NCBI GenBank assembly: GCA_964357255.1 | Contig: CAYHKQ010000042.1 | Coordinates: forward strand, 1-22,317 | Direction of reading: 5' to 3' | Source: an uncultured Elusimicrobia bacterium | Lineage (GTDB): Bacteria > Elusimicrobiota > Elusimicrobia > JACQPE01 | Length of the DNA stretch: 22,317 nt | Shown here: piece after piece, positions 4,243 to 20,214 of the stretch | How the letters are laid out: each line of letters starts with the position of its first letter | How positions within the stretch are numbered: the first letter of the stretch is position 1 | Translations under genes and position numbers: made by a program | The notes under the pieces: model-generated | Databases searched by the model: none | Told to the model about the DNA's origin: nothing | The model's input: only the letters and a program-made list of their open reading frames with translations

Positions 4243-5226
4243 CTAAAATTTAATCGTCAAATTCATTCGATGCGCATTGCCAAGAAGTCCGAACGGTTGA
4301 AACGAGTAATCCAAGCCGATAGCGCCGAGCGCTAAGCCGAATCCGGCTCCGAGTCCGCCTAAGGCCGAAGCTCCCGCGCTTTCTAATCCGTGATAGCCCA
4401 GGCGCAGGGCCAAGGGACGGCCGGAGGATTCTCCTGCGGCCGGCGCGAGTTCTACGCCAGCCGCCAGTTCGTGGGATTTTTCGCCGGGCCTCATTTTGTA
4501 ATCCGCGGCGAGGCGGATGCCGCCGAGATTGAAACCCGCTCCCAGGGCGTAAGTGAGCGGCAGTTTTGAGACCTCGTTGATGAATCGCAGGCCCGGTCCC
4601 GCGTTTTGAATGGCCGCGCCAAACGTCAGTTTTTTGTTGGCCGCCAGCATAATTCCAAAATCGCCGAAGTAGGTGGCGGCCTTGTAGCCAGCGAGGGACT
4701 CTTGAAAATAGGAAAGTTTGAATCCGGCGAGAATTCTCGGATGAATTTGCCGGGCCATGCCCAGGCTAACGGCCAAGTCGCCGGCTGAAAAGTCATCGCT
4801 CAGTCGTCCCGCGCTGTCGCGTCCCGTGAATTGTCCCATGTCCATGCGGTAGAAGCTTAACCCCAGAACGCCGGCTTTGCTAGGAAGAGCCAGCGCGGCA
4901 AATTGCATTTGAGAGCCCTCAAGCCATTCGCTGTGCATTAAGGAAAGCATGGGCCGTTTTATTCGGGCCAAGCCGGAGGGATTGTACGCGAGGGCCAGCG
5001 GGTCATTGGCCAGGGCCGTGTAGGCGCCGCCCAGGGCCGAGGGCCGGGCGCCGATGCCGGCTAAAAGGGATTCAGCGCCATTGGTTCCGGCGGCATACAG
5101 GGGCAAGGTGAATGAGGCAATAAAAGAAAGAAGAGAAGATAACCCGGCTAGAAACCGGGACTTCGTCCCTTCCTTAAAGTACGAAACGCTCGTTTCGTTT
5201 TGTGACCGTCTATTACCTAGGCTCAT
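4243..5226 (-). CDS. PorV/PorQ-like outer-membrane beta-barrel protein. The N-terminal motif GARPSALGGAYTALANDPLALAYNPSGLA resembles the PorV-family signature G-x-R-A-x-G-M-G-G-A...NPAGLA. The protein ends in a C-terminal Phe (LTIKF). The track ORF extends to 5364, but that N-terminal 46 aa are Arg-rich and lack a signal peptide. Met47 at 5226 gives an n-region plus an h-region (FLAGLSSLLSFIASFTLPLYAAG).
   Basis: Track ORF 4243..5364. Motif recognition and the alternating hydrophobic beta-strand pattern with a terminal aromatic residue. The stop TAG at 4243..4245 lies 14 nt before the next gene. The start is uncertain between 5226 and 5364. Confidence 0.65.
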   Translation of the reverse strand: MSLGNRRSQNETSVSYFKEGTKSRFLAGLSSLLSFIASFTLPLYAAGTNGAESLLAGIGARPSALGGAYTALANDPLALAYNPSGLARIKRPMLSLMHSEWLEGSQMQFAALALPSKAGVLGLSFYRMDMGQFTGRDSAGRLSDDFSAGDLAVSLGMARQIHPRILAGFKLSYFQESLAGYKAATYFGDFGIMLAANKKLTFGAAIQNAGPGLRFINEVSKLPLTYALGAGFNLGGIRLAADYKMRPGEKSHELAAGVELAPAAGESSGRPLALRLGYHGLESAGASALGGLGAGFGLALGAIGLDYSFQPFGLLGNAHRMNLTIKF

Positions 5227-5448
5227 TGGCTTGCATTCGGTTCGTCCAAGCTCGCCATCGGCAGCCAGGCTACCCGAGCGTTTACACCGGCCGCTTTGTG
5301 GGGAGTCCAAAGCGGACTGGAGTTTTGTCTGTCGGGCCCTTGGCTTCGCGCCCCTGCCTTTCAAAGATCAGGTTTGCCGTTTCGTGGCGGTCACTTTACG
5401 ACAACCATTAACTTTCACCCCAAAACGGGTTTGCGTCAAGGGGGGTCG

Positions 5449-10003: not shown

Positions 10004-10633
10004 ATGAATTTGTTGCTATTTTTTTTGGCGGGCGCTTTGAGCGCGTCGCCGACCGCGCGTCTTGAGGTCGGCAAGGGAACGGTTCATTTGATGCGCGCGG
10101 GATCATCGGTTTGGTTGCCGATTGAAACAAACACGGAAGTGTTGCAAGGCGATAAGTTGAGAACCTATGCCGATACCAAGGCGATTTTAATTTTGGCCGA
10201 CAGCTCGACGGTCGAACTGCATCCTTGGAGCTTATTGCAGATTGACAGCCTCGATAGTCAGGGTCAGAATTTTCGTCTTGATATGGGTAGCGTTCGCTCG
10301 AGGGTGGCCAAGTTCATGAGGCGTTTTCAAGTAGCGACCCCTGTGTCTGTTTGCGCGGCGCGCGGAACGGATTACAATGTGGCCGTTGACCCCGACCAGC
10401 AGGGCAAGACCAGCGTCAGCGTCGCGGAAGGCAAGGTTTCGGTCAAGGACGACAAGGGCGGGGAGGTCTTATTGGCCAAGGGCGATTCGGTGATTGTTTT
10501 GGCCGAAGGATTGCAGACCCCGGCGCGTTCCTCGCCGTCCGAGGAGTCCGAGTCGCCGCCCCGGCGCCGGCGATTGTTTTACAGCGTGATGGGCGCGTTT
10601 GTTTTTATCGCGGTTGCGTTGGTTGCGATTTAG
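10004..10633 (+). CDS. FecR-domain protein of 209 aa with an N-terminal signal peptide and a C-terminal TM anchor (RRRRLFYSVMGAFVFIAVALVAI). It has no N-terminal anti-sigma domain.
   Basis: Two FecR-like beta segments (LEVGKGTVHLMRAGSSVWLPIETNTEVLQGDKLRTYADTKAILILADSSTVELHPWSLLQID, and ATPVSVCAARGTDYNVAVD...VSVAEGKVSV). A GGGAGGA Shine-Dalgarno-like sequence sits 4 nt before the ATG. Confidence 0.6.
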   Translation: MNLLLFFLAGALSASPTARLEVGKGTVHLMRAGSSVWLPIETNTEVLQGDKLRTYADTKAILILADSSTVELHPWSLLQIDSLDSQGQNFRLDMGSVRSRVAKFMRRFQVATPVSVCAARGTDYNVAVDPDQQGKTSVSVAEGKVSVKDDKGGEVLLAKGDSVIVLAEGLQTPARSSPSEESESPPRRRRLFYSVMGAFVFIAVALVAI

Positions 10634-10634
10634 T

Positions 10635-10778
10635 GAAAGCTCGTAACTACCCAGGTCCCCTTGGATTCGTCATACCGGCGAAAGCCGGTATCCAGTGAAG
10701 GCAAATCCAAAGAAGGCCTGGATTCCGGCTTTCGCCGGAATGACGGGGAAGGGGAACCTGAGTAGTTACGAAAGCTCG
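10635..10778. mobile_element. MITE-like palindromic element, about 126 bp core (10644..10769), flanked by a 9-bp direct repeat GAAAGCTCG (10635..10643 and 10770..10778), a putative target-site duplication. Terminal inverted repeats are GTAACTACCCAGGTCCCC and GGGGAACCTGAGTAGTTAC. Internal twin hairpins are TACCGGC-GAAA-GCCGGTA (GNRA tetraloop) and TTCCGGC-TTTC-GCCGGAA.
   Basis: Read from the sequence. It starts 1 nt after the FecR-gene stop. Translating across it gives the spurious N-terminus WIPAFAGMTG of track ORF 10695..11189, a peptide signature I recognise from repeat-derived ORFs in other genomes. Confidence 0.5.
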
Positions 10779-10805
10779 ATAATTTATAATATTAGCGAGA
10801 AGCTG

Positions 10806-11189
10806 ATGATTAAAAAATTAGCAATCATGGCGTTGATCCTTGGGGTCAGCCAAGCGAGCGCTTGTTTGCTCCAATGCCAAGGCATGAGCAGCCATCAAAA
10901 TCGCCGGCCACAAACTTCATCCGCGCATCATTGCTGTCCTAATTCCAAGCGGTCCAAACAAGTTCCTTCTCACCCCGGAGCTGTTTGTTGCCTGGTAAAA
11001 TTTCAATCTCAAGATTCAACCCTGAAAGTCGCTTCGTTTCAAAAGACCGATATCGTTTGGTTGCCGCAGAGTAGCGGCCCGGATTCGGCCCAAGTGTTTC
11101 GCGGCCCGGTCTTGGAATCCGTTCTTCCTCAAAAAATTCCCAAACCTCTTGTTTGGGCTATTCGCCTTCTTCGTTCTCCTCCAGCATAA
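10806..11189 (+). CDS. Small secreted Cys/His-rich protein of 127 aa. Signal peptide MIKKLAIMALILGVSQASA, then CLLQCQG, HHCCP and AVCC motifs. Possible periplasmic metal-binding or redox protein. The track start at 10695 is an artefact of reading through the MITE.
   Basis: In-frame ATG at 10806 followed by a canonical signal peptide. Cys/His clustering. It sits between two MITE-like elements just upstream of the cus-like operon. Whether the gene is real is uncertain. Confidence 0.35.
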   Translation: MIKKLAIMALILGVSQASACLLQCQGMSSHQNRRPQTSSAHHCCPNSKRSKQVPSHPGAVCCLVKFQSQDSTLKVASFQKTDIVWLPQSSGPDSAQVFRGPVLESVLPQKIPKPLVWAIRLLRSPPA

Positions 11190-11263
11190 AAACGCTCTTG
11201 CCGTAAATCCGGCCGTTGCGTTTTATAAGAAGTTTATTGCCGGACCTTAATATTTCGTTTACT

Positions 11264-11400
11264 TGTTTACACGACTCATGCAAAATACGCCCGCTCATGG
11301 TGAGCTTGTCGAACCATGAGCCTGACCAAGGGATTGGCTCATCCTTCGACAAGCTCAGGATGAGCGGGTTCAATCAATTTGCATGACTCGTATTGTTTAT
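11264..11400. mobile_element. Second, unrelated MITE-like element (core 11271..11391). Terminal inverted repeats are ACGACTCATGCAAA and TTTGCATGACTCGT (1 mismatch). It is flanked by a direct repeat TTGTTTA (11264..11270 and 11393..11399). Internal twin hairpins have 8-bp stems (GCTCATGG/CCATGAGC and GCTCATCC/GGATGAGC) and 13-nt loops that are exact reverse complements of each other (TGAGCTTGTCGAA and TTCGACAAGCTCA).
   Basis: Read from the sequence. Translation gives the spurious ORFs 11158..11373 and 11339..11674 containing LSLSKDEP and FDKLTMSG, peptide signatures of a widespread repeat family. Confidence 0.5.
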
Positions 11401-11423
11401 CGTGAGGTCCATATGGAGGTGAA

Positions 11424-12674
11424 TTGAAGATTATTCTAGCGCCAGCGTTTGTGGTCATGCTTATTGTTCCGGCTATGGCTGAGGAGACTGTTTTCATTTC
11501 GACGGGATCCCTTACATTGAAGGAAGCCTTGGCCGAGGCCCGCGAGCGCAGTCCTGAAATTTTAGCCGCCCGTAAATTTTGGGAGGCGCTTGCGAGCAGG
11601 CCGGTTGGGGCGGCCGCGCCGGAGAATCCCCGTCTGGATATTGAAAGAATGTACGCGAGCGGCGGAAGGAACATTATAACAGGGGCCGAGGAAAAAAATT
11701 TTATGCTCAGCCAGGAGATTCCTTTCCCGGCAAAACTTCATTTGAGAAAGCGGGTGGCTTTAAAAGCCGCGGCCATGGCGGAGCAAGGGTATTTGGCCAA
11801 GATCAGGGACGTGCTGGCCCGGGTCCGTTCGATCTATGCCATGCTTTATCTTTCACACAAAAATTTGGAATTGTTTAACGAGAATATTGAGTTGTTGCGC
11901 CGTTTTGCCAAGGTGGCTGAGTCAAAATACGCGGCCGGCCGCGCGAGCCAATCGGACGTCCTTAAGGCCCACGTGGAATTGAGCAAGATGCTTAATATGC
12001 TCGTGGTTGTTAATCAGGACAAGGAGGCGGCCGGGTTCATGCTCAACGCGCTTTTGGGCAGGGCCCCGGAGTCGGCATTAGGGGTTCCGGTTGATCTTGA
12101 TTCAAAAAAATTGGACTACAGTCTCGACGAGCTTGAGCGCCAAGCCTTGCAATCGCGTCCCCAACTGCTCGAAGCGGCGCTCGGCGTGGAGCGGGCCGCC
12201 GGCGCGCTTTCATTGGCCAGATCGGAATTTTTTCCTGATTTCATGCTTCAATACCGCCAGCGCCGCGATTCTATGCGTGGAAGTTCTCAGGACGCGATGA
12301 TTGGATTTACGATCCCTCTTTGGTTTTGGAAGCCCGCGGCCATGGCGGCCGAGGCCAAGTCGGAGTTGCAAATGTTTCAGGCCCAACTGCAGGCCACCAG
12401 GCTCATGACCCTGTCCGAGGTCCGCGCTTCCTTTGTCCGGGCCCGGACAAGCCAGCGCCTGATTGAACTTTATCGCAACGGCGTCTTGGCGCAGGCCGAG
12501 GGGGCGCTTAAAGTGGTTGAGGCGAGTTATCAGGCCGATAAGGCGAGTTTTCTGGACTTGGTGGACGGACAGCGCGCATTTTTGAATTTTAAGCTCGAAT
12601 ACTACCAATACATCGCCGAGTACGAACAACGCCTCGCGGAGCTAGAGCGCGCTGTTGGAAAGGAGTTGCTATGA
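11424..12674 (+). CDS. cusC: Outer-membrane efflux protein of 416 aa (TolC-like outer-membrane factor, CusC/CzcC type). TTG start 4 nt after a GGAGG Shine-Dalgarno sequence, followed by a signal peptide.
   Basis: Signal peptide MKIILAPAFVVMLIVPAMA. Two repeated alpha-helical coiled-coil/beta segments typical of OEP-family proteins. Its stop overlaps the next gene's ATG (ATGA at 12671..12674). Confidence 0.8.
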   Translation: MKIILAPAFVVMLIVPAMAEETVFISTGSLTLKEALAEARERSPEILAARKFWEALASRPVGAAAPENPRLDIERMYASGGRNIITGAEEKNFMLSQEIPFPAKLHLRKRVALKAAAMAEQGYLAKIRDVLARVRSIYAMLYLSHKNLELFNENIELLRRFAKVAESKYAAGRASQSDVLKAHVELSKMLNMLVVVNQDKEAAGFMLNALLGRAPESALGVPVDLDSKKLDYSLDELERQALQSRPQLLEAALGVERAAGALSLARSEFFPDFMLQYRQRRDSMRGSSQDAMIGFTIPLWFWKPAAMAAEAKSELQMFQAQLQATRLMTLSEVRASFVRARTSQRLIELYRNGVLAQAEGALKVVEASYQADKASFLDLVDGQRAFLNFKLEYYQYIAEYEQRLAELERAVGKELL

Positions 12675-14059
12675 GAAAAAATAAACTTGTGATTTTAATC
12701 CTTGCGGTTTTTATCTTTGGAGCCGGCGGCCTGGTTGTGCGGTTTCGCCGTGGAGCAAGTCATGGCGCTGGAGTCGCCCCAGAGGCGGTCCGTTATTATT
12801 GTCCGATGCATCCTACTTATACCTCGGATCGCCCCGGCGCTTGTCCGATTTGCAACATGTCTCTTGTGCCCATGGAGACGCCGGATGCTTCCGGGGCCGC
12901 GGCTCAGAATCCTGCCGGTTCCGGAAAAAAAGTCTGCCTGCTTCACAACTGCAACATGGCCAATTGCCCCATGGAGTTAGAACTCAAACCAGGCCAAAAG
13001 GTGACATGTCCCGTATGCGGGACTCATGTAGAGGAGGCGCAAGAGCTTGCTCAAGGAAAAATTCTCTATTACCGTCATCCCGTGCGGCCGGAGCTAACGT
13101 CCCCGTCGCTCAAAAAGGATGAGATGGGAATGGATTACGTGCCTGTCTATGCCGAGAAACAAGACGTTCGGGTTCCGGTCGGGGGCCAAGCCGGCGTGAC
13201 TTTGACGGCGGAGCGCCGCCGGCTCATTGGCATGGAATCGCAGGCATTGGTAAGACGTGATTTAAAATTTACGGTCAGGGCCAGCGGCCGCGTGGCTTAT
13301 GATCCTGATCTTTACAACGCCATTGCGGAATATCGGGAGGCTGTGCGGACTAAAGAACAGGTCAAGGAGAATTCCTGGCCCGATGTCCAGGATCGTTCCC
13401 AAGCTTTAGTGAGGGCTTCCCTTTTGAGATTGAGACAGTCGGGTTTATCTGAGTCTCAAATTGAAGATATTGCCCGGAGCACGGGGGCGCAGTCAACTAA
13501 TCTCCTTTTGGGAGGTTCCGAAGAAAGCGTCTGGGTCTATGCCCAGATTTATGAGTATGAGATTGGCTTTGTCAAATCCGGCCAGAGAGCCGAAATTACA
13601 ACCCCGGCTTATCGGGGACGGAAATTTTACGGCACGGTTAAAGCGGTGGACCCTATCCTTTCCGCGGAAACCAGGTCTCTTAAAGTCCGTATCGAGGTTC
13701 CCAATCCCGAGGGGCTCTTGAAGCTGGAAATGTATGTCAACGCGGAGATCCGCGTGGACATTGGATTTAAGCTTGCCCTTCCCGAGGAGGCGCTTATGGA
13801 GACGGGCGAGCGTCAACTCGTTTTTATTGACCTTGGCCAGGGGCGCATTGAGCCAAGAGAGGTGCGCATCGGCCAAGAGGCGAAGGGTTATTATGAGGTC
13901 ATCTCCGGCATCCGCGAAGGCGAGAGGGTCGTGACATCGGCCAATTTCCTCATTGACTCCGAGTCGAAACTGAAGGCCGCCATTTCAACCTCGAAGGACA
14001 AGGCCAAGGGCAAGGGCGACTCCCAACCCGCCGATTCTTTTTCGGAACACAGGCATTGA
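12671..14059 (+). CDS. cusB: Efflux RND periplasmic adaptor (membrane-fusion protein) of the CusB/SilB type, 462 aa. N-terminal TM anchor. It has a heavy-metal-binding motif YYCPMHPTYTSDRPGACPICNMSL, an additional Cys cluster CLLHNCNMANCPMELELKPGQKVTCPVCGTHV, and the degenerate YYRHPVRP...KDEMGMDYVPVY motif. The C-terminus is His-rich (SEHRH).
   Basis: The CPMHP...CPICxM motif is characteristic of Cu(I)/Ag(I) adaptor N-domains. Beta-barrel/lipoyl-like segments follow (VKAVDPILSAETRSLKVRIEVPNPEGLLKLEMYVNAEI). Translational coupling with cusC. Confidence 0.85.
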   Translation: MRKNKLVILILAVFIFGAGGLVVRFRRGASHGAGVAPEAVRYYCPMHPTYTSDRPGACPICNMSLVPMETPDASGAAAQNPAGSGKKVCLLHNCNMANCPMELELKPGQKVTCPVCGTHVEEAQELAQGKILYYRHPVRPELTSPSLKKDEMGMDYVPVYAEKQDVRVPVGGQAGVTLTAERRRLIGMESQALVRRDLKFTVRASGRVAYDPDLYNAIAEYREAVRTKEQVKENSWPDVQDRSQALVRASLLRLRQSGLSESQIEDIARSTGAQSTNLLLGGSEESVWVYAQIYEYEIGFVKSGQRAEITTPAYRGRKFYGTVKAVDPILSAETRSLKVRIEVPNPEGLLKLEMYVNAEIRVDIGFKLALPEEALMETGERQLVFIDLGQGRIEPREVRIGQEAKGYYEVISGIREGERVVTSANFLIDSESKLKAAISTSKDKAKGKGDSQPADSFSEHRH

Positions 14060-14066
14060 GGCTTTT

Positions 14067-17000
14067 ATGGTCAGAAAACTTATAGCTTGGTCGGCGCACA
14101 ACAAGTTCCTGGTGATGGCCTTGACGGCCGTTTCCATGGTGGCGGGCTGGTATTGCATGAAGAACATTCGGCTCGACGCGATTCCGGACCTCTCGGACAC
14201 GCAGGTCATCGTCTATTCCCGATGGGATCGCTCTCCCGACATCATCGAGGACCAGGTCACTTATCCGATTATCACCGCTCTCCTGGGAGCTCCGAAGGTC
14301 AAAGCTGTGCGCGGTTTTTCCGACTTCGGCTTCTCCTACGTCTACGTCATTTTCGAGGATGGCGCCGACATCTACTGGGCGCGTTCGCGCGTGCTGGAGT
14401 ACCTGAGCAAAATTCTGCCGCAGATGCCCGATGGTGTGCGCACCGAGCTTGGCCCTGACGCTACGGGCGTGGGCTGGGTTTACCAATACGCCCTTGTCGA
14501 CAAGACGGGCCGGCACAGCCTCGCCGACTTGAGATCCTTCCAGGATTGGACGTTACGCTATTACTTGCAGTCAGTTCCGGGAGTGGCCGAGATCGCTTCT
14601 ATCGGAGGCTTCCAGAAACAATATCAGGTGCAGGTTGACCCCAATGCGCTGGTCGCCTATCGCATCCCGCTCGGCCGAGTCGTTGACGCCATCCGCGACG
14701 GCAATAACGACGTTGGCGGACGGCTTGTCGAGTTCGCGGGCACGGAATACATGATCCGCGGCCGCGGCTACGCTAAGTCGGTCGAAGACATCGAGCAGAT
14801 CGTCGTCGGCCGCGACACGCGCGGCACGCCTGTCCTGGTCAAGAGCATAGCCAAGGTGACCTTGGGCCCTGATATCCGGCGTGGCATCGCTGATCTTGAC
14901 GGCGAGGGCGATGTTGTCGGAGGCATCGTGGTGATGCGCCATGGCGAGAACGCCCTCAACGTCATCAAAAGGGTCAAGGCGCGCCTCGATGAGGTCGGGC
15001 CCTCGTTGCCGGAAGGAGTCGAGATCGTCAAGACCTACGATCGCTCCGAGCTCATCGAAGGCGCCATTGCCACCTTAAAGGATGAGCTTTTTATGCAGAT
15101 GTTGTTGGTCAGCCTTGTCATCCTTGTTTTTCTCTGGCACATTCCCTCCGCGATTGTGCCGATCGTGACGATTCCGATTTCGACGGTGCTGGCCTTTATT
15201 CCTTTGTACTTCATGGGCGTGAGCGCCAACATCATGTCTATCTCAGGGATCATGCTGTCCATCGGCGTGCTCGTGGACGGCTCTATGGTGGAGGTGGAGA
15301 ATGCTTATAAGAAGCTACAACTTTGGGTCGCGGGAGGGCGCAAAGGCGATTTTCACGCCGTGCGCCTGGAGGCGTTGCAGGAGGTCGGGCCCGCGGTGTT
15401 TTACTCTCTAATGGTCGTGGCCGTCGCTTTCTTTCCGATTTTCGCGCTCGTGGACCAGGAGGGCAGGCTCTTTAAGCCGTTGGCCTACACAAAGAACCTG
15501 ACAATGCTCCTGGCGGCGTTTCTCGCCCTGACCCTGGATCCGGCTGTGCGCATGATGTTCTCGCGCATGAACTATTTTGTGTTCAAGCCGAATTGGCTCG
15601 CGTGGACCATCAACCAGATTACCGTCGGCCGCTATTACGCTGAGGAAAAGCACCCGATCAGCAAGGGTTTGTACCGCCTCTACGACCCCGTCTGCCGCTG
15701 GGTGTTGGAGCGGCCGTGGAAGGTGATTGGGGCCGCCGTACTCATCACCCTGGCAACCGTGCCGATTTACCTCAAGCTGGGTTCTGAGTTCATGCCTCCG
15801 CTCAACGAGGGCACGATTTTGTACATGCCGACGACCTTGCCGGGGATATCGGTCACTCAGGCCGCGGACTTGCTTAAGAAGCAGGATGAGATCCTTAAAA
15901 GCTTTCCGGAGGTGGAGCGGGTTTTCGGTAAGGCGGGCCGCGCCCAGACCTCGACCGACCCGGCCCCTTTTTCAATGATGGAGACCACCGTAATCCTCAA
16001 GCCAATGGACCAGTGGAGGAAAAAAGAACGGTGGTATTCCCTGTTCCCGGAGTTCTTCCAGAAGCCATTGCGGCGTGTCTGGTGGGACAGGCTCACCTGG
16101 GACGAACTGGTCGCCGAGATGGACAAGCGCATGAGGTTCCCGGGCGTGACCAACGCCTGGACCATGCCGATTAAGGCGCGCATTGATATGCTGACTACCG
16201 GAGTGCGCACACCCATTGGTATTAAGGTCTACGGGGCGGACCTAGCGCAGATCGAGGCGGTGGGGCAGGAGATCGAAGCGGTCCTTCGCGAGGTTCCGGG
16301 GACGCGCTCCGTCTATGCCGAGCGCACTGCGGGCGGCTATTTCGTTGACTTCCGGCTCAAGCGCGAACAGTTGGCGCGCTATGGTTTATCCGTCAAGGAG
16401 GTCGAGATGGTCATCATGTCAGCCATTGGCGGTGAAACAGTCACGACCACCATCGAAGGCCGAGGGCGCTATAGCGTCAACGTCCGCTACCCGCGCGAGC
16501 TCCGGGACAATCTCCCCAAGCTCAAGCGGGTGCTCGTGGCCACAATGGACGGCGCGCAGATTCCCCTGGCTCAGTTGGCCGACATCGAATTGACGATGGG
16601 CCCGGCGATGATCCGCAACGAGAATGGGATGCTGGCCGGTTACGTCTACGTGGACGTTGCCGGACGCGACATTGGAGGCTATGTCGAGGAAGCCAAGAAG
16701 AAGGTCGCTTCGGTGGTGGACCTTCCTGTCGGCTACGCCATTGGGTGGAGCGGCCAGTATGAAAACATGGTGCGCGTGCGCGAGCGCATGACCCTGGTCC
16801 TTCCTTTGACCCTGGTGATCATCGTCCTGCTCATGTACATGAACACCAAGTCCTGGATCAAGACGGGGATCGTAATGCTGGCGGTGCCATTTTCGCTCAT
16901 CGGCGCCTTCTGGGGGTTCTATCTCCTCGACTACAACCTCTCGGTGGCGGCCTGGGTGGGCATGATCGCGCTCATGGGCCTTGACGCTGAGACGGGCACC

Positions 17001-17357
17001 TTCATGTTGCTCTACCTCGATCTGGCCTACGCCGACGCGGTGCGCGAGGGCCGAATGCGCAACTACGAAGACTTAAAGGAGGCGGTGATGCACGGCGCGG
17101 TCCGGCGCATCCGCCCTAAGATGATGACGGTGTTCACCGATTTTCTCGGCCTGATGCCGATCATGTGGTCGCTCGGCACGGGGGCGGATCTCATGAAGCG
17201 CATTGCCGCGCCCATCATTTTTGGGCTGTTCACGAGTTTTGCGCTCGAGCTTGTGGTCTACCCGGCGATTTTTCTCCTCTGGAAGTGGCATGGCGATATG
17301 CGAAAGGGAACGGTGGACGTAAATCAACTTCCGGTCCCGGAGATTCGGGAGTATTGA
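14067..17357 (+). CDS. cusA: Heavy-metal efflux RND transporter of the CusA/CzcA family (HME-RND), 1,096 aa, with 12 TM helices.
   Basis: Length, TM pattern and conserved HME-RND blocks. The TM4 proton-relay block reads SIGVLVDGSMVEVEN (S-D-E). This matches the monovalent Cu/Ag type A-D-E more closely than the divalent D-D-E type. Confidence 0.93.
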   Translation: MVRKLIAWSAHNKFLVMALTAVSMVAGWYCMKNIRLDAIPDLSDTQVIVYSRWDRSPDIIEDQVTYPIITALLGAPKVKAVRGFSDFGFSYVYVIFEDGADIYWARSRVLEYLSKILPQMPDGVRTELGPDATGVGWVYQYALVDKTGRHSLADLRSFQDWTLRYYLQSVPGVAEIASIGGFQKQYQVQVDPNALVAYRIPLGRVVDAIRDGNNDVGGRLVEFAGTEYMIRGRGYAKSVEDIEQIVVGRDTRGTPVLVKSIAKVTLGPDIRRGIADLDGEGDVVGGIVVMRHGENALNVIKRVKARLDEVGPSLPEGVEIVKTYDRSELIEGAIATLKDELFMQMLLVSLVILVFLWHIPSAIVPIVTIPISTVLAFIPLYFMGVSANIMSISGIMLSIGVLVDGSMVEVENAYKKLQLWVAGGRKGDFHAVRLEALQEVGPAVFYSLMVVAVAFFPIFALVDQEGRLFKPLAYTKNLTMLLAAFLALTLDPAVRMMFSRMNYFVFKPNWLAWTINQITVGRYYAEEKHPISKGLYRLYDPVCRWVLERPWKVIGAAVLITLATVPIYLKLGSEFMPPLNEGTILYMPTTLPGISVTQAADLLKKQDEILKSFPEVERVFGKAGRAQTSTDPAPFSMMETTVILKPMDQWRKKERWYSLFPEFFQKPLRRVWWDRLTWDELVAEMDKRMRFPGVTNAWTMPIKARIDMLTTGVRTPIGIKVYGADLAQIEAVGQEIEAVLREVPGTRSVYAERTAGGYFVDFRLKREQLARYGLSVKEVEMVIMSAIGGETVTTTIEGRGRYSVNVRYPRELRDNLPKLKRVLVATMDGAQIPLAQLADIELTMGPAMIRNENGMLAGYVYVDVAGRDIGGYVEEAKKKVASVVDLPVGYAIGWSGQYENMVRVRERMTLVLPLTLVIIVLLMYMNTKSWIKTGIVMLAVPFSLIGAFWGFYLLDYNLSVAAWVGMIALMGLDAETGTFMLLYLDLAYADAVREGRMRNYEDLKEAVMHGAVRRIRPKMMTVFTDFLGLMPIMWSLGTGADLMKRIAAPIIFGLFTSFALELVVYPAIFLLWKWHGDMRKGTVDVNQLPVPEIREY

Positions 17358-17375
17358 TCATCATGGAAATGATCT

Positions 17376-18263
17376 ATGCCTTTTAAATTTAAGCGCGAAG
17401 AGATCCGTAGGAGGAATCACCGTCGTCCTTGGCATCCACGCAACGCCGCTGTGATGCTTGCCTTGTTGAGCGCGGGGTTGGGGCAGGCTTTTGCTGAACA
17501 GGCGCATCATCAGGCCGGCGCCGCTACGGTGCGGGCGGGTCAGTGGATCGCTCAGCCCTGGGAGACAGGCGAGGAACGTTTGCGCTGGCGCATATTCGGT
17601 TCATATTTGTCCTCCCAATCCCGATTCGACGCGCTCGGCGATCGAGTGGCGCTTGAGAATAACGGACGTTATTCTAACTTTGGACTGAACGCCTTTTTGG
17701 AGTATGCGTTGAACCCGCGTTGGAGCATTGCCGGACTGGCTCCGTTGCAATGGTCCAGGCTTTCGGATGACTTGAGCCGTGAGCGTTGGGTCAATGTCGG
17801 AGATACGTATGGCTGGGTCCGCCGCTCTATTGAAGGGAATGCGCGCTGGAGCGCCGGCGCGCTGGCTGGAATCAAGATTCCGGGAAATTACCGGCCGGGC
17901 GCCGCTACGGGGGACCGTCAAACGGACATGGAGGCTCAAGGGTTTTTGGGGCACGGTCTTGGCCGCGGCAGTTTCGCATCTTTAGGTTCCGGATATAGGG
18001 TCCGTTTCGGGAGTCCATCTGATGAAATTTTTTTTAACGCGCAGTTCGGCTGGAACCCCGGGAACGGATGGCTTCTCGTGCCGGCCGCCGCCGGCGCCCT
18101 GGGCGTCGGAGGGGGCGTTCCTAAAGACTTCCTTAATGCCGGGGTTACTATTTTTCGTTCCCTGCGGGGCCCATGGAGACTTCTAGGCTCCTATAATCGT
18201 GTTATTGCGGGCAAAAATACGGTGAGCGCCGGCGTCTGGGCGCTAGGAGTTTCATATCAATAG
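17376..18263 (+). CDS. Putative outer-membrane beta-barrel protein of 295 aa from the first ATG. The signal peptide is more plausible from Met27 at 17454 (MLALLSAGLGQAFA|EQAHH). It is Gly-rich with an alternating hydrophobic pattern. Family undetermined.
   Basis: Track ORF directly downstream of cusA with an 18-nt gap. The amphipathic beta-strand periodicity and the aromatic-rich C-terminal strand (VWALGVSYQ) suggest an outer-membrane barrel. An AGGAGG-like sequence at 17409..17414 lies between the two candidate starts. Confidence 0.5.
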   Translation: MPFKFKREEIRRRNHRRPWHPRNAAVMLALLSAGLGQAFAEQAHHQAGAATVRAGQWIAQPWETGEERLRWRIFGSYLSSQSRFDALGDRVALENNGRYSNFGLNAFLEYALNPRWSIAGLAPLQWSRLSDDLSRERWVNVGDTYGWVRRSIEGNARWSAGALAGIKIPGNYRPGAATGDRQTDMEAQGFLGHGLGRGSFASLGSGYRVRFGSPSDEIFFNAQFGWNPGNGWLLVPAAAGALGVGGGVPKDFLNAGVTIFRSLRGPWRLLGSYNRVIAGKNTVSAGVWALGVSYQ

Positions 18264-18297
18264 AGCTACCCATGTCGCACAGACCCGGGCGCCAACA

Positions 18298-19836
18298 ATG
18301 GCGGCTATGGCCATAGTCCTTTGGATAGCGCCAAGTGTCCTGATTTTTGCCCAGGAACACGCAGGGTTCCGCCATGGAGAGTCCGCAATGGCCAAGGTTC
18401 CTTCGCAACATTCTGACGATGAAATTGCGGCCAAAGAGTTTGGCTTGAATCTTGAAACCTGGAGCGGACTCACGCGCATGGGCCATGCCGTGGCAACCTG
18501 GAGGATGAAACCCATCCCGGAAAGGCGAATCATTCTTTTCGATTTTTCCTATCGTCGCTCGTTGGCCTTAAATAAAGCGCAAGAGTTATTGAAAGCCGGA
18601 GAAGATGCCGATTGCGAAGAGATCCGCTTTTTAAGGATTTATTTGGGAGATGGGGCCATGCGCCCGATACTTCTGAAACACGAAAAAAGCGAAGCCCATC
18701 TGGCGCATGAACACCCCGGCAAACCTCCGCTGGCCGGGGAAGGACAACGTCCCGCAGAGCCGGTAGTTAAGGATATTAAGCTCTGCCGCATCAACTGGGA
18801 CGGCCCAAAGGAGCCGACAATTCCTTCTCCTGTTCCGCTTCCTGGGGGAGGATTCGATTCTCACGAAGGCCATCGCGGTCATTCTTCGGGAGGCATCACT
18901 CGCGATCATGGGAATTCCAGGCACGAAGACCATCGTAGAGGTTCGGGAGGAGGTGGCCCATCGCAGGGTCATGAAAATTCTCATCGCCAAGGTTCCGCCG
19001 GCGGACCAGATGATGCTCGTCATGGCCCAGGCGCTTCTCGTTCTGAGGGCGCCCAGCATAACTCAAGCCACGGCCAATCTCTCAGCATCGCGCCTGCTAC
19101 GAGCGCCGGCGCTTCTCATGTTCACGCGGCTAAGGGGGGATCGAACGCGATGTCGAGTCCTCGGCATAACAGCGAGCCCGCTAGCCTTCATGGCGATCTG
19201 GCTCATCCCCAACCAGTTTATGGGCGCTCCTACGAAAGACCGGTTGCTGGTTTTTCAAAAAACCATGCCCATGTTCCATCGTTAATGAATTCTCCGGCTA
19301 AGGCCGGCCAAGAGGGAGATCATCGTTTGCATTCATCTTCTGATTACAGCGCTATTGTTGACCATGGAGTTCATCAAATATCGCATGAAGCAAGTTCGCC
19401 TCAAGGGAGTTTCCAGCGCCACGCGCGTCATTCTCAGGCAACTCAAGACCCTGGCCTTCCTCACCATGCCGTGGCTCATGGGACGCCAGATTCAAATTTT
19501 CCAAGCGCTGTCCATGAAAGCGTTTTTGGCCATCGTGCCGTAGATGACCATCAGGAACGTCACAAAAGCCTTGCGGCAAGGCAAACTAATGGCGCCCCTG
19601 CAGATATTGCCGCAAGCCACGTTCATCACAATGATCACTCAACCCACCAAAAGCAAGACATTGAACGCCCTGCCAAGGAAAACTTATCGCCAGGCTCGGA
19701 TGTTGATCAAAAGGGAAATATCCCTCCGTGGCCCTGGAAGGGGGCTGTCTTGTTTGCCTCTGTAGCCTATGCCGGAGCGCTTTGGAAGCGGCGTAAAGTA
19801 GGGCCGCAATTCAGAAATTCGCAAAGGAGGAAATGA
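18298..19836 (+). CDS. Histidine-rich protein of 512 aa. It has a hydrophobic N-terminal signal-like segment (AMAIVLWIAPSVLIFA|QE) and a roughly 150-aa globular N-domain. A roughly 300-aa Gly/Ser/His-rich low-complexity region follows. By my hand count it holds about 37 His, with no Cys and few Met. The C-terminal TM anchor (GAVLFASVAYAGALW) carries a basic tail (KRRK). Putative periplasmic, membrane-tethered metal-binding or metal-buffering protein.
   Basis: Track ORF with degenerate H-x-x-S-x-H / GH / HxH repeats. An alternative start at 18388 (ATG 7 nt after GGAGAG) would remove the signal segment. No recognisable enzyme motif. Confidence 0.7.
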   Translation: MAAMAIVLWIAPSVLIFAQEHAGFRHGESAMAKVPSQHSDDEIAAKEFGLNLETWSGLTRMGHAVATWRMKPIPERRIILFDFSYRRSLALNKAQELLKAGEDADCEEIRFLRIYLGDGAMRPILLKHEKSEAHLAHEHPGKPPLAGEGQRPAEPVVKDIKLCRINWDGPKEPTIPSPVPLPGGGFDSHEGHRGHSSGGITRDHGNSRHEDHRRGSGGGGPSQGHENSHRQGSAGGPDDARHGPGASRSEGAQHNSSHGQSLSIAPATSAGASHVHAAKGGSNAMSSPRHNSEPASLHGDLAHPQPVYGRSYERPVAGFSKNHAHVPSLMNSPAKAGQEGDHRLHSSSDYSAIVDHGVHQISHEASSPQGSFQRHARHSQATQDPGLPHHAVAHGTPDSNFPSAVHESVFGHRAVDDHQERHKSLAARQTNGAPADIAASHVHHNDHSTHQKQDIERPAKENLSPGSDVDQKGNIPPWPWKGAVLFASVAYAGALWKRRKVGPQFRNSQRRK

Positions 19837-19839
19837 CCT

Positions 19840-20214
19840 ATGTTCCAACTCATGAAATCAAAAACACTGCTTAGCGCAATGTTGTTAACGATGGCTCTGG
19901 GATTGGCGGCGATGGCCGCTAACGACTCATACAAGAAAAAGCCCGGCCATCACCCCGCATGCCCCATGAAAATAGAAGGGGCGGAAGTCCGCGTGGATAA
20001 TATTGAATCCGGCGTGGTGGTTCATATAACAGCCGAGGATCCGGCTGTCGTCAAAAACATTCAGGATACGGCTTCCCGAATGGTTCAACATCATTCCCAG
20101 AAAAAGGGAGGGGCTAAAAAGGAAATTTATTCCTGCCCCATGAATGACTACTCCGGATCCCAGACCAAAGATGGCCGTTGCCCTAAATGCGGCATGAATC
20201 TTGAGAAAAAGTAA
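19840..20214 (+). CDS. Small secreted protein of 124 aa with a standalone heavy-metal-binding domain. Signal peptide, N-terminal HHPACPM, and a C-terminal YSCPMNDYSGSQTKDGRCPKCGMNL (the same Y-x-CPM...G-x-CP-x-CGM-x-L motif as the CusB N-domain). Candidate periplasmic Cu(I)/Ag(I) metallochaperone.
   Basis: Motif identity with the adaptor metal-binding motif in 12671..14059. Signal peptide MFQLMKSKTLLSAMLLTMALGLAAMAA. It lies 4 nt after the His-rich gene. Confidence 0.7.
   Translation: MFQLMKSKTLLSAMLLTMALGLAAMAANDSYKKKPGHHPACPMKIEGAEVRVDNIESGVVVHITAEDPAVVKNIQDTASRMVQHHSQKKGGAKKEIYSCPMNDYSGSQTKDGRCPKCGMNLEKK

Follow-up and report, generated by a model that had tools for sequence, protein, structure and literature searches.

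A miniature transposable element with IS66-like ends encloses a doublet of Ssn-related hairpin motifs

The Correia elements of Neisseria have 26-bp ends of the TATAGTGGATTAA type and a TA duplication, and in the NIMEs of this genus hairpins of the dRS3 type flank variable segments. REPINs, which are mobilized by RAYT, consist of two short inverted hairpin repeats that form a larger hairpin. Each hairpin is preceded on its 5′ side by a conserved single-strand flank, and REPINs are intergenic and present in multiple copies. A further class of hairpin was described by Chenal et al. (Nat Commun 2025; PMC11893778). It comprises the Neisseria NTS (CGTCATTCCCGCGMAVGCGGGAATCYRG), in which dRS3 is contained, and a broader form of the NTS, the Ssn-related motif (SRM). 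NTS and SRM are single-stranded DNA (ssDNA) sites of SsnA, a 94-residue GIY-YIG (cd10448) nuclease that binds the hairpin, cuts a few nucleotides 5′ of it, and is inactive on double-stranded DNA and on RNA (PMC11893778). The 5′ CGTCAT is critical for cutting and the C directly past the palindrome for binding, and the Neisseria enzyme no longer cuts when the sequence of the stem is changed with its structure kept (PMC11893778). According to the same authors, NTS-ssnA-NTS resembles an insertion sequence (PMC11893778). Insertion sequences of the IS66 family are marked by ends starting with GTAA and by 8-bp direct repeats (PMC11946415). ISDge4, an active member of the ISBst12 group of this family with a single 449-residue transposase, has the ends GTGACTACTCAGCA and GTAACTGCTCAGCA and an 8-bp direct repeat (PMC12898284).

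We analyzed a stretch of 22,317 nucleotides from an uncultured Elusimicrobia bacterium, hereafter the window, for which a MITE-like insertion downstream of a FecR-domain gene had been proposed. [quoted passage not shown] It represents a new family combining two known kinds of sequence, IS66/ISBst12-type ends and a doublet of known SRM hairpins. Our overall reading, in which we have good confidence, is that this non-autonomous MITE with an SRM doublet inside is moved by a transposase of the ISBst12 group and spreads Ssn sites.

Table 1. Features of the MITE and of its immediate neighbors in the window
Feature	Position	Strand	Basis or remark
FecR-domain protein gene, 209 aa, upstream neighbor	10004..10633	+	Outside the element; stop 1 nt before the duplication
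Left 8-bp target-site duplication copy, GAAAGCTC	10635..10642		Length set against five other copies
MITE proper, GTAACTAC...GTAGTTAC	10643..10769		127 bp, no coding capacity; ends are where similarity to at least 10 other loci stops
Left terminal inverted repeat, GTAACTACCCAGGTCCCC	10643..10660	+	Starts with GTAA; 11/14 bases identical to each ISDge4 end (PMC12898284)
SRM unit A, CGTCATACCGGCGAAAGCCGGTATCCAG; 8-bp stem, GAAA loop, sense on + strand	10668..10695	+	Match to the published SRM pattern; perfect local hairpin
Central spacer between units A and B, non-palindromic	10696..10717		Length and sequence vary among copies
SRM unit B, CGTCATTCCGGCGAAAGCCGGAATCCAG, sense on - strand; one compensated stem pair apart from unit A	10718..10745	-	Match to the SRM pattern
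Right terminal inverted repeat; minus-strand reading GTAACTACTCAGGTTCCCC	10751..10769	-	Inverted-repeat analysis and copies
Right 8-bp target-site duplication copy, GAAAGCTC	10770..10777		Compared across copies
Small ORF, downstream neighbor, 127 aa from ATG at 10806, no Pfam match	10806..11189	+	Outside the element; precedes a CzcCBA-like RND efflux operon

The direct repeat GAAAGCTCG, at 10635-10643 and 10770-10778, begins 1 nt past the stop of the FecR-domain ORF (which ends at 10633, with the repeat starting at 10635), as originally described. It had been read as a 9-bp target-site duplication. The 9-bp repeat is indeed present, but the duplication itself is 8 bp long, because five other copies are flanked by perfect 8-bp duplications of other sequences; the left terminal repeat already begins with the ninth base, G, whose recurrence on the right side is coincidental. 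Both ends of the element are GTAACTAC, beginning with GTAA. The outer inverted repeat has arms of 20 nt at 10641-10660 and 10752-10771 that are 90% complementary; the terminal inverted repeats, announced as 18 to 19 bp, were found with arms of 18 to 20 nt. The arms of the inner inverted repeat, at 10668-10695 and 10718-10745, are 28 nt long and 93% complementary, confirming that they are not exact reverse complements. They form two perfect 8-bp hairpins, ATACCGGC-GAAA-GCCGGTAT and ATTCCGGC-TTTC-GCCGGAAT, whose sole difference is a swapped A/T pair. The GAAA loop of each hairpin lies on its own sense strand, and any one strand therefore shows one GAAA and one TTTC. The 22-kb window contains no second copy of the element, and neither the core nor the terminal motif was found in shuffled windows. 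Like the MITE, Correia elements and NIMEs are small intergenic repeats with terminal inverted repeats; however, neither the end sequence nor the duplication length of the Correia elements matches those of the MITE.

A scan of metagenomes for the terminal repeat followed by the beginning of the hairpin unit recovered 16 contigs, mostly from the Hainich H41 groundwater series. One of them (L140) is the window's own locus, and the remaining contigs match the window inside the element only. An identical copy of the window locus is L001, from the Hainich H41 groundwater series, and L137 aligns with the window over 129 nt at 100% identity. The related copies that had been expected elsewhere thus exist in the same groundwater metagenome, where at least 10 distinct intergenic insertion sites were found, counted over contigs of this community whose flanks are unshared. 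Perfect 8/8 duplications flank six copies, and all are different: GAAAGCTC in the window, GAAAAAAC in L125, AAATAAAC in L126, AAATAATC in L128, TCGGCAGG in L133, and ATTTTTAT in L139. L131 and L135, with duplications matching at 6/8 positions, are older copies. The element occurs in both orientations, and its terminal inverted repeats (about 18 bp; consensus GTAACTACYCAGGTCC) are kept at both ends in all complete copies; L135 has kept both ends with a single SRM.

Copies without nested inserts range from 106 to 139 bp, and those with inserts reach 220 bp (L128) and 182 bp (L097). All frames across the copies are short or interrupted by stops, and there is no transposase gene. The only long ORF through any copy is one stop-to-stop frame in L128, and at several copies neighboring frames reach into the element ends, by about 30 nt at most. 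Numerous contigs terminate inside the element, as expected of a repeat. The insertions at unrelated loci, the copy-specific perfect 8-bp duplications and the assemblies that break inside the element uphold the proposal of a MITE-like mobile insertion. The whole element is known from the 16 metagenome contigs and one metagenome-assembled genome (MAG) only. The latter, CBDUZI01 of an unclassified bacterium, has a 182-bp copy (L097:2990-3171) with the same terminal repeats, in which the stem of one unit is the variant ACCCCGGC and the loop of the other contains a 35-nt hairpin insert; no matching 8-bp duplication was found at this copy.

The ends of the element resemble those of ISDge4. The MITE end consensus GTAACTACTCAGGT agrees with each ISDge4 end (GTGACTACTCAGCA and GTAACTGCTCAGCA) at 11 of 14 bases and with their degenerate consensus at 12 of 14, ISDge4 being the one published comparator, and both elements combine GTAA ends with 8-bp target-site duplications. 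In contrast to ISDge4, the 127-bp MITE lacks a transposase gene, and only 11 of the 14 end bases are shared. Judging from terminal sequence and duplication length, the mobilizer is likely an IS66-family transposase of the ISBst12 group acting in trans. No end pairs 1 to 4 kb apart, as an autonomous partner would have, were present in any fetched locus. A search for the parent element in viral contigs gave 43 single matches, mostly within coding sequence and chance-like, and one pair: in L160:2946-3624, two inverted GTAACTACTCAGGT ends are separated by 678 nt and lack a matching 8-bp duplication, which may represent a larger non-autonomous relative or a chance pairing. A literature search on ISBst12 together with MITEs returned mainly papers on plant MITEs.

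We identify the hairpins inside the element, from their match to the published pattern, as the SRM motif and not as a new RNA motif. Units A and B both match HGTCWYN(0-2)YYVSBRHN(0-5)WNVSBRGN(0-2)RNCYNB, for which 0.125 matches are expected per shuffled window, and both keep the 5′ CGTCAT and the C directly 3′ of the palindrome; the same flanks are conserved in 142 units. Like SRM/NTS, they are oriented 28-nt hairpins that run from CGTCAT through an 8-bp stem, a G-M-A-V loop and the return stem to C-C/Y-R-G, and in both cases units are found across many phyla. They differ from them in the stems, which are ATWCCGGC/GCCGGWAT in the window versus ATTCCCGC/GCGGGAAT, and in their location within a transposon that has terminal repeats and a target duplication. 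Neither the strict NTS pattern CGTCATTCCCGCGMAVGCGGGAATCYRG nor the dRS3 pattern ATTCCC-N8-GGGAAT matches in the window. The units are thus SRMs rather than strict NTSs, because their stems differ by one or two compensated pairs. A BLAST search of the whole element against a plasmid collection aligned only the 32-nt core, at 93.8% identity, with N. gonorrhoeae chromosomes misfiled there. On the element itself there was no Rfam match at the gathering threshold, and the best sub-threshold E values, 0.16 to 8, are at chance level.

SRMs inside a transposon do not appear in the main text of the Ssn paper, from which the words MITE and target site duplication are absent (PMC11893778). A hand-written motif screen of six-frame translations gave no credible GIY-YIG or ssnA-like ORF, either within the 22-kb window or across the fetched loci, which amount to about 1 Mb. 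By extrapolation from the Neisseria and Wolbachia enzymes, units A and B would be substrates of an Ssn nuclease.

Predicted structures on both strands are far more stable than those of shuffled sequence. The RNA fold energies of the element are -86 and -89 kcal/mol for the two strands (z = -10.5 and -11.9), and the DNA fold energy is -45 kcal/mol (z = -10.2). For the fully single-stranded element, the predicted fold is one long hairpin of -45 kcal/mol, and the local hairpins have about -9 kcal/mol each; in this model the long hairpin is predicted to mask both local ones.

The swapped A/T pair had been interpreted as a compensatory change that keeps the local stems perfect while breaking the global palindrome. 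This pattern extends to the whole family. In a set of nine elements, comprising the MITE family and one Elusimicrobia doublet, the local stems are paired at all 142 positions, compared with 116 of 142 when the arms are paired with each other. In each of the nine, one or two stem pairs distinguish one unit from the other, and every difference is compensated. One ancestral A/T swap is common to four Hainich copies, and L131, L132, L133, L097, and L119 are independent cases. At larger scale, with a scan pattern that left both W positions free, the W...W stem pair is complementary in 149 of 149 units from more than 100 genomes (123 T/A, 26 A/T), and the approximately 43 mismatches expected from base frequencies contrast with none observed. 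These comparisons support a constraint that acts on the local single-strand hairpins, not on the long palindrome, in agreement with the published finding that Ssn recognizes structure as well as sequence. Selection on RNA or ssDNA hairpins had been envisaged; the part concerning single-strand hairpins stands, but the substrate of the Neisseria enzyme is ssDNA and not RNA (PMC11893778). The original prediction of internal GNRA hairpins likewise holds for the two hairpins in the window, but not as a strict rule for the loop, whose consensus across 142 units is G-[A/C]-A-[A/G].

Three unrelated doublets, L065:1158-1226 (Desulfobacterales), L105:3436-3513 (Methyloligella), and L119:5210-5300 (Elusimicrobia), resemble that of the window in having an A-type unit, ATACCGGC, and a different unit on the opposite arm. 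Such hetero-doublets may be favored, perhaps as a way to avoid perfect long palindromes.

Genome scanning with the unit GTCATWCCGGCNNNNGCCGGWATCC yielded at least 120 loci. The matches listed include Alpha-, Beta-, Gamma-, and Deltaproteobacteria, Chloroflexota, Bacteroidota, Planctomycetota, Acidimicrobiia, Elusimicrobia, and one Bathyarchaeota contig. Conservation among 142 units covers only about 29 nt, YC-GTCAT-T-CCGGC-G[A/C]A[A/G]-GCCGG-A-ATCC-AG, with random flanks, and in a BLAST comparison of the whole element with the 120 genome loci listed similarity never went past the 28- to 33-nt unit. Thus, the unit is widespread and the whole MITE is not. The family had been presumed to be widespread, which is correct for the 28-nt hairpin unit (at least 120 loci in many phyla) but not for the element that encloses it (16 contigs and one MAG). 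The Bathyarchaeota match (L103, a binned Candidatus Bathyarchaeota contig) is an SRM-type unit with the 9-nt loop GTCATTCCGGCATGTTTTTAGCCGGAATC; the unit may be truly archaeal, or the contig may have been binned wrongly.

With a relaxed unit definition, the 120 genome loci listed (L003-L122) contain 218 units. Pairs at most 150 nt apart are convergent, with CGTCAT outward, in 65 cases, divergent in 2, and in tandem in 6. We did not find this convergent-doublet layout described in the main text of the Ssn paper (PMC11893778). In Dyella, Elusimicrobia, and other genomes the repeat does not extend past the SRM units and lacks an outer terminal repeat. Convergent doublets being a common layout, the family of the window therefore consists of a typical SRM doublet enclosed by IS66-type ends. 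A Dehalococcoidia MAG (L074:3083-3314 and 4980-5068) has tandem same-strand arrays of units with a period of about 62 nt; we rejected a CRISPR interpretation of this array, its "spacers" being themselves repeated, with degenerate CGTCAY half-motifs.

Extra DNA lies within the SRM hairpin loops of two MITE copies, L128:1370-1589 and L129:1766-1912. An identical 50-nt insert with two hairpins, TCCCAACCCTCTATTAAAATTGAGGGGACTGTCCCGTCTCCTGACGGGAC, is found in both, between CCGGCG and GAAAGCCGG. Its host is a T-type unit in L128 and an A-type unit in L129, and its position and orientation relative to the unit are identical; the other unit of L128 holds a hairpin insert of 41 nt that is distinct from it. 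No duplication is obvious around these loop inserts, suggesting a tiny loop-targeting element. Split SRMs were also seen in Dehalococcoidia MAGs (L030, L108 at two sites, and L118), where "loops" of 29 to 31 nt hold a second SRM-like unit (CGTCA[T/C]CCCGTAC...GATACGGG), and L003 has a different 31-nt loop insert in a split SRM.

The element lies 9 nt past the FecR stop codon and 36 nt ahead of the next start codon. The translation WIPAFAGMTG given for it earlier is correct (frame +2); searches of the literature with peptide strings such as IPAFAGMT and RGNDG returned collagen noise only. A mechanically called ORF, 10695-11189, has a GTG start within the MITE, and its translation crosses unit B as ...WIPAFAGMTGKGNLSSYES... 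This GTG probably creates a spurious N-terminal extension, the true start likely being the ATG at 10806. Exact-protein look-ups of both versions of this small ORF found no called gene on record.

The closest named relatives of the aspartate kinase encoded in the window are from Elusimicrobiota MAGs (65, 59, and 56% identity). The ask-hom-FecR order is kept in L123, whose FecR homologue (56% identity) is the only one, and in the Elusimicrobia loci L184 and L185. The element is absent from these three loci, as is any SRM. They are not clean empty sites because their downstream genes differ, and none was recovered among the orthologous loci examined. Synteny with the relatives stops exactly at the MITE; downstream, the relatives have Omp85 or response-regulator genes, and the window (10806-20214) has a secreted-looking small ORF, a CzcCBA-like RND system whose membrane-fusion protein carries an HMBD domain, two ORFs without Pfam match, and a second HMBD protein. 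This segment may be an acquired metal-resistance block. Elsewhere in the window, a c-di-GMP-I riboswitch (RF01051; 5257-5388, minus strand; 40.1 bits versus a gathering score of 35) lies upstream of an ORF for an outer-membrane protein of the UPF0164 family. The mechanical TTG start of this ORF at 5364 overlaps the riboswitch, and its true start is thus probably further downstream.

If the element were instead a locus-specific structured regulatory RNA, or a transcription terminator separating the FecR-domain gene from the efflux operon, its very stable folds on both strands and its tight fit between stop and start codons would make sense. Against this, multiple copies occur at unrelated loci in both orientations, orthologous ask-hom-FecR loci do without the element, and Rfam gave no match at the gathering threshold. 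The promoter and terminator scan made no call on the element, which has no T-run, and the Neisseria Ssn enzyme that recognizes the related NTS did not bind RNA (PMC11893778). We therefore consider a regulatory RNA or terminator extremely improbable. A main role as a recombination or integration hotspot, with transposition secondary, would liken the element to the dRS3/NIME attachment sites of Neisseria, which are used by IS110-type or phage recombinases. The resemblance of the core to dRS3/NTS of N. gonorrhoeae (93.8% identity over 32 nt), the status of dRS3 as a known phage-recombinase target (PMC11893778), and the nested loop inserts of 35 to 50 nt, constant in position and orientation in several copies, argue for such a role. 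However, it leaves the terminal repeats and the 8-bp duplications unexplained, the core departs from the strict dRS3 sequence, and there is no integrase gene near the element, making this a quite improbable main function.

The mobile unit could also be the SRM doublet itself, moved like a REPIN by an ssDNA mechanism involving Ssn or an HUH/Y1 enzyme such as RAYT, with the outer repeats and the duplication incidental. The predominance of convergent doublets in unrelated genomes (65 versus 2 in the loci listed), the repeats of Dyella, Elusimicrobia, and others that end at SRM units, and the likeness of NTS-ssnA-NTS to an insertion sequence (PMC11893778) speak for mobility of the doublet. The MITE family also shares with REPINs the pair of short inverted hairpins forming a larger one, the intergenic multicopy distribution, and the conserved flank 5′ of each hairpin. 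Its 5′ motif is CGTCAT, however, and the GT[AG]G tetranucleotide of REP sequences is absent; moreover, the enzyme of the SRM hairpin class is a GIY-YIG nuclease rather than a Y1/HUH transposase, and REPINs have neither outer terminal repeats nor 8-bp duplications. Similarity between MITE copies runs about 25 bp past each unit, to GTAACTAC and GTAGTTAC, where perfect 8-bp duplications follow in six copies. Copy-specific 8-bp duplications directly at the ends are the mark left by DDE transposition with staggered cuts rather than by a single-strand peel-and-paste mechanism, and L135 has both ends with one SRM. Movement of the doublet by itself is thus a very improbable explanation for this family.

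In the preferred reading, transposition of a MITE with an SRM cargo, a DDE transposase from the ISBst12 group of the IS66 family would bind to the terminal repeats and cut the target with an 8-bp stagger. Whenever the region became single-stranded, in transformation, conjugation, or replication, each unit would fold its own hairpin, and a GIY-YIG Ssn nuclease could then bind the unit hairpin and cleave the strand a few nucleotides 5′ of CGTCAT. Because the two units have opposite orientations, one sense site is present on either strand. In this way the MITE would carry Ssn target sites to new places in intergenic DNA. At the window locus itself the element is most likely neutral, probably with no role of its own. 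A more elaborate and rather doubtful possibility is a layered mobile-DNA system centered on SRM hairpins, which would then be more than passive nuclease targets, and in which doublets defined by Ssn cuts were captured by an IS66/ISBst12-type MITE and the loops serve as landing sites for hairpin elements of 35 to 50 nt. It is suggested by the 65 convergent versus 2 divergent doublets, by the same 50-nt insert in two MITE copies, and by the nested units of Dehalococcoidia.

For annotation, spurious peptides of the WIPAFAGMT or VIPAKAGIQ type and false N-terminal extensions such as that from the GTG at 10695 are to be expected where these sequences occur, and assemblies break at these MITE repeats. 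Target hairpins of Ssn reach hundreds of copies in some genomes, and with regard to insertion-sequence-like behavior of NTS-ssnA-NTS Chenal et al. only speculate. The MITE family would provide a concrete route for their spread, a conventional cut-and-duplicate transposon with an SRM doublet as cargo, in a groundwater lineage, probably of Elusimicrobiota, that is far from Neisseria.
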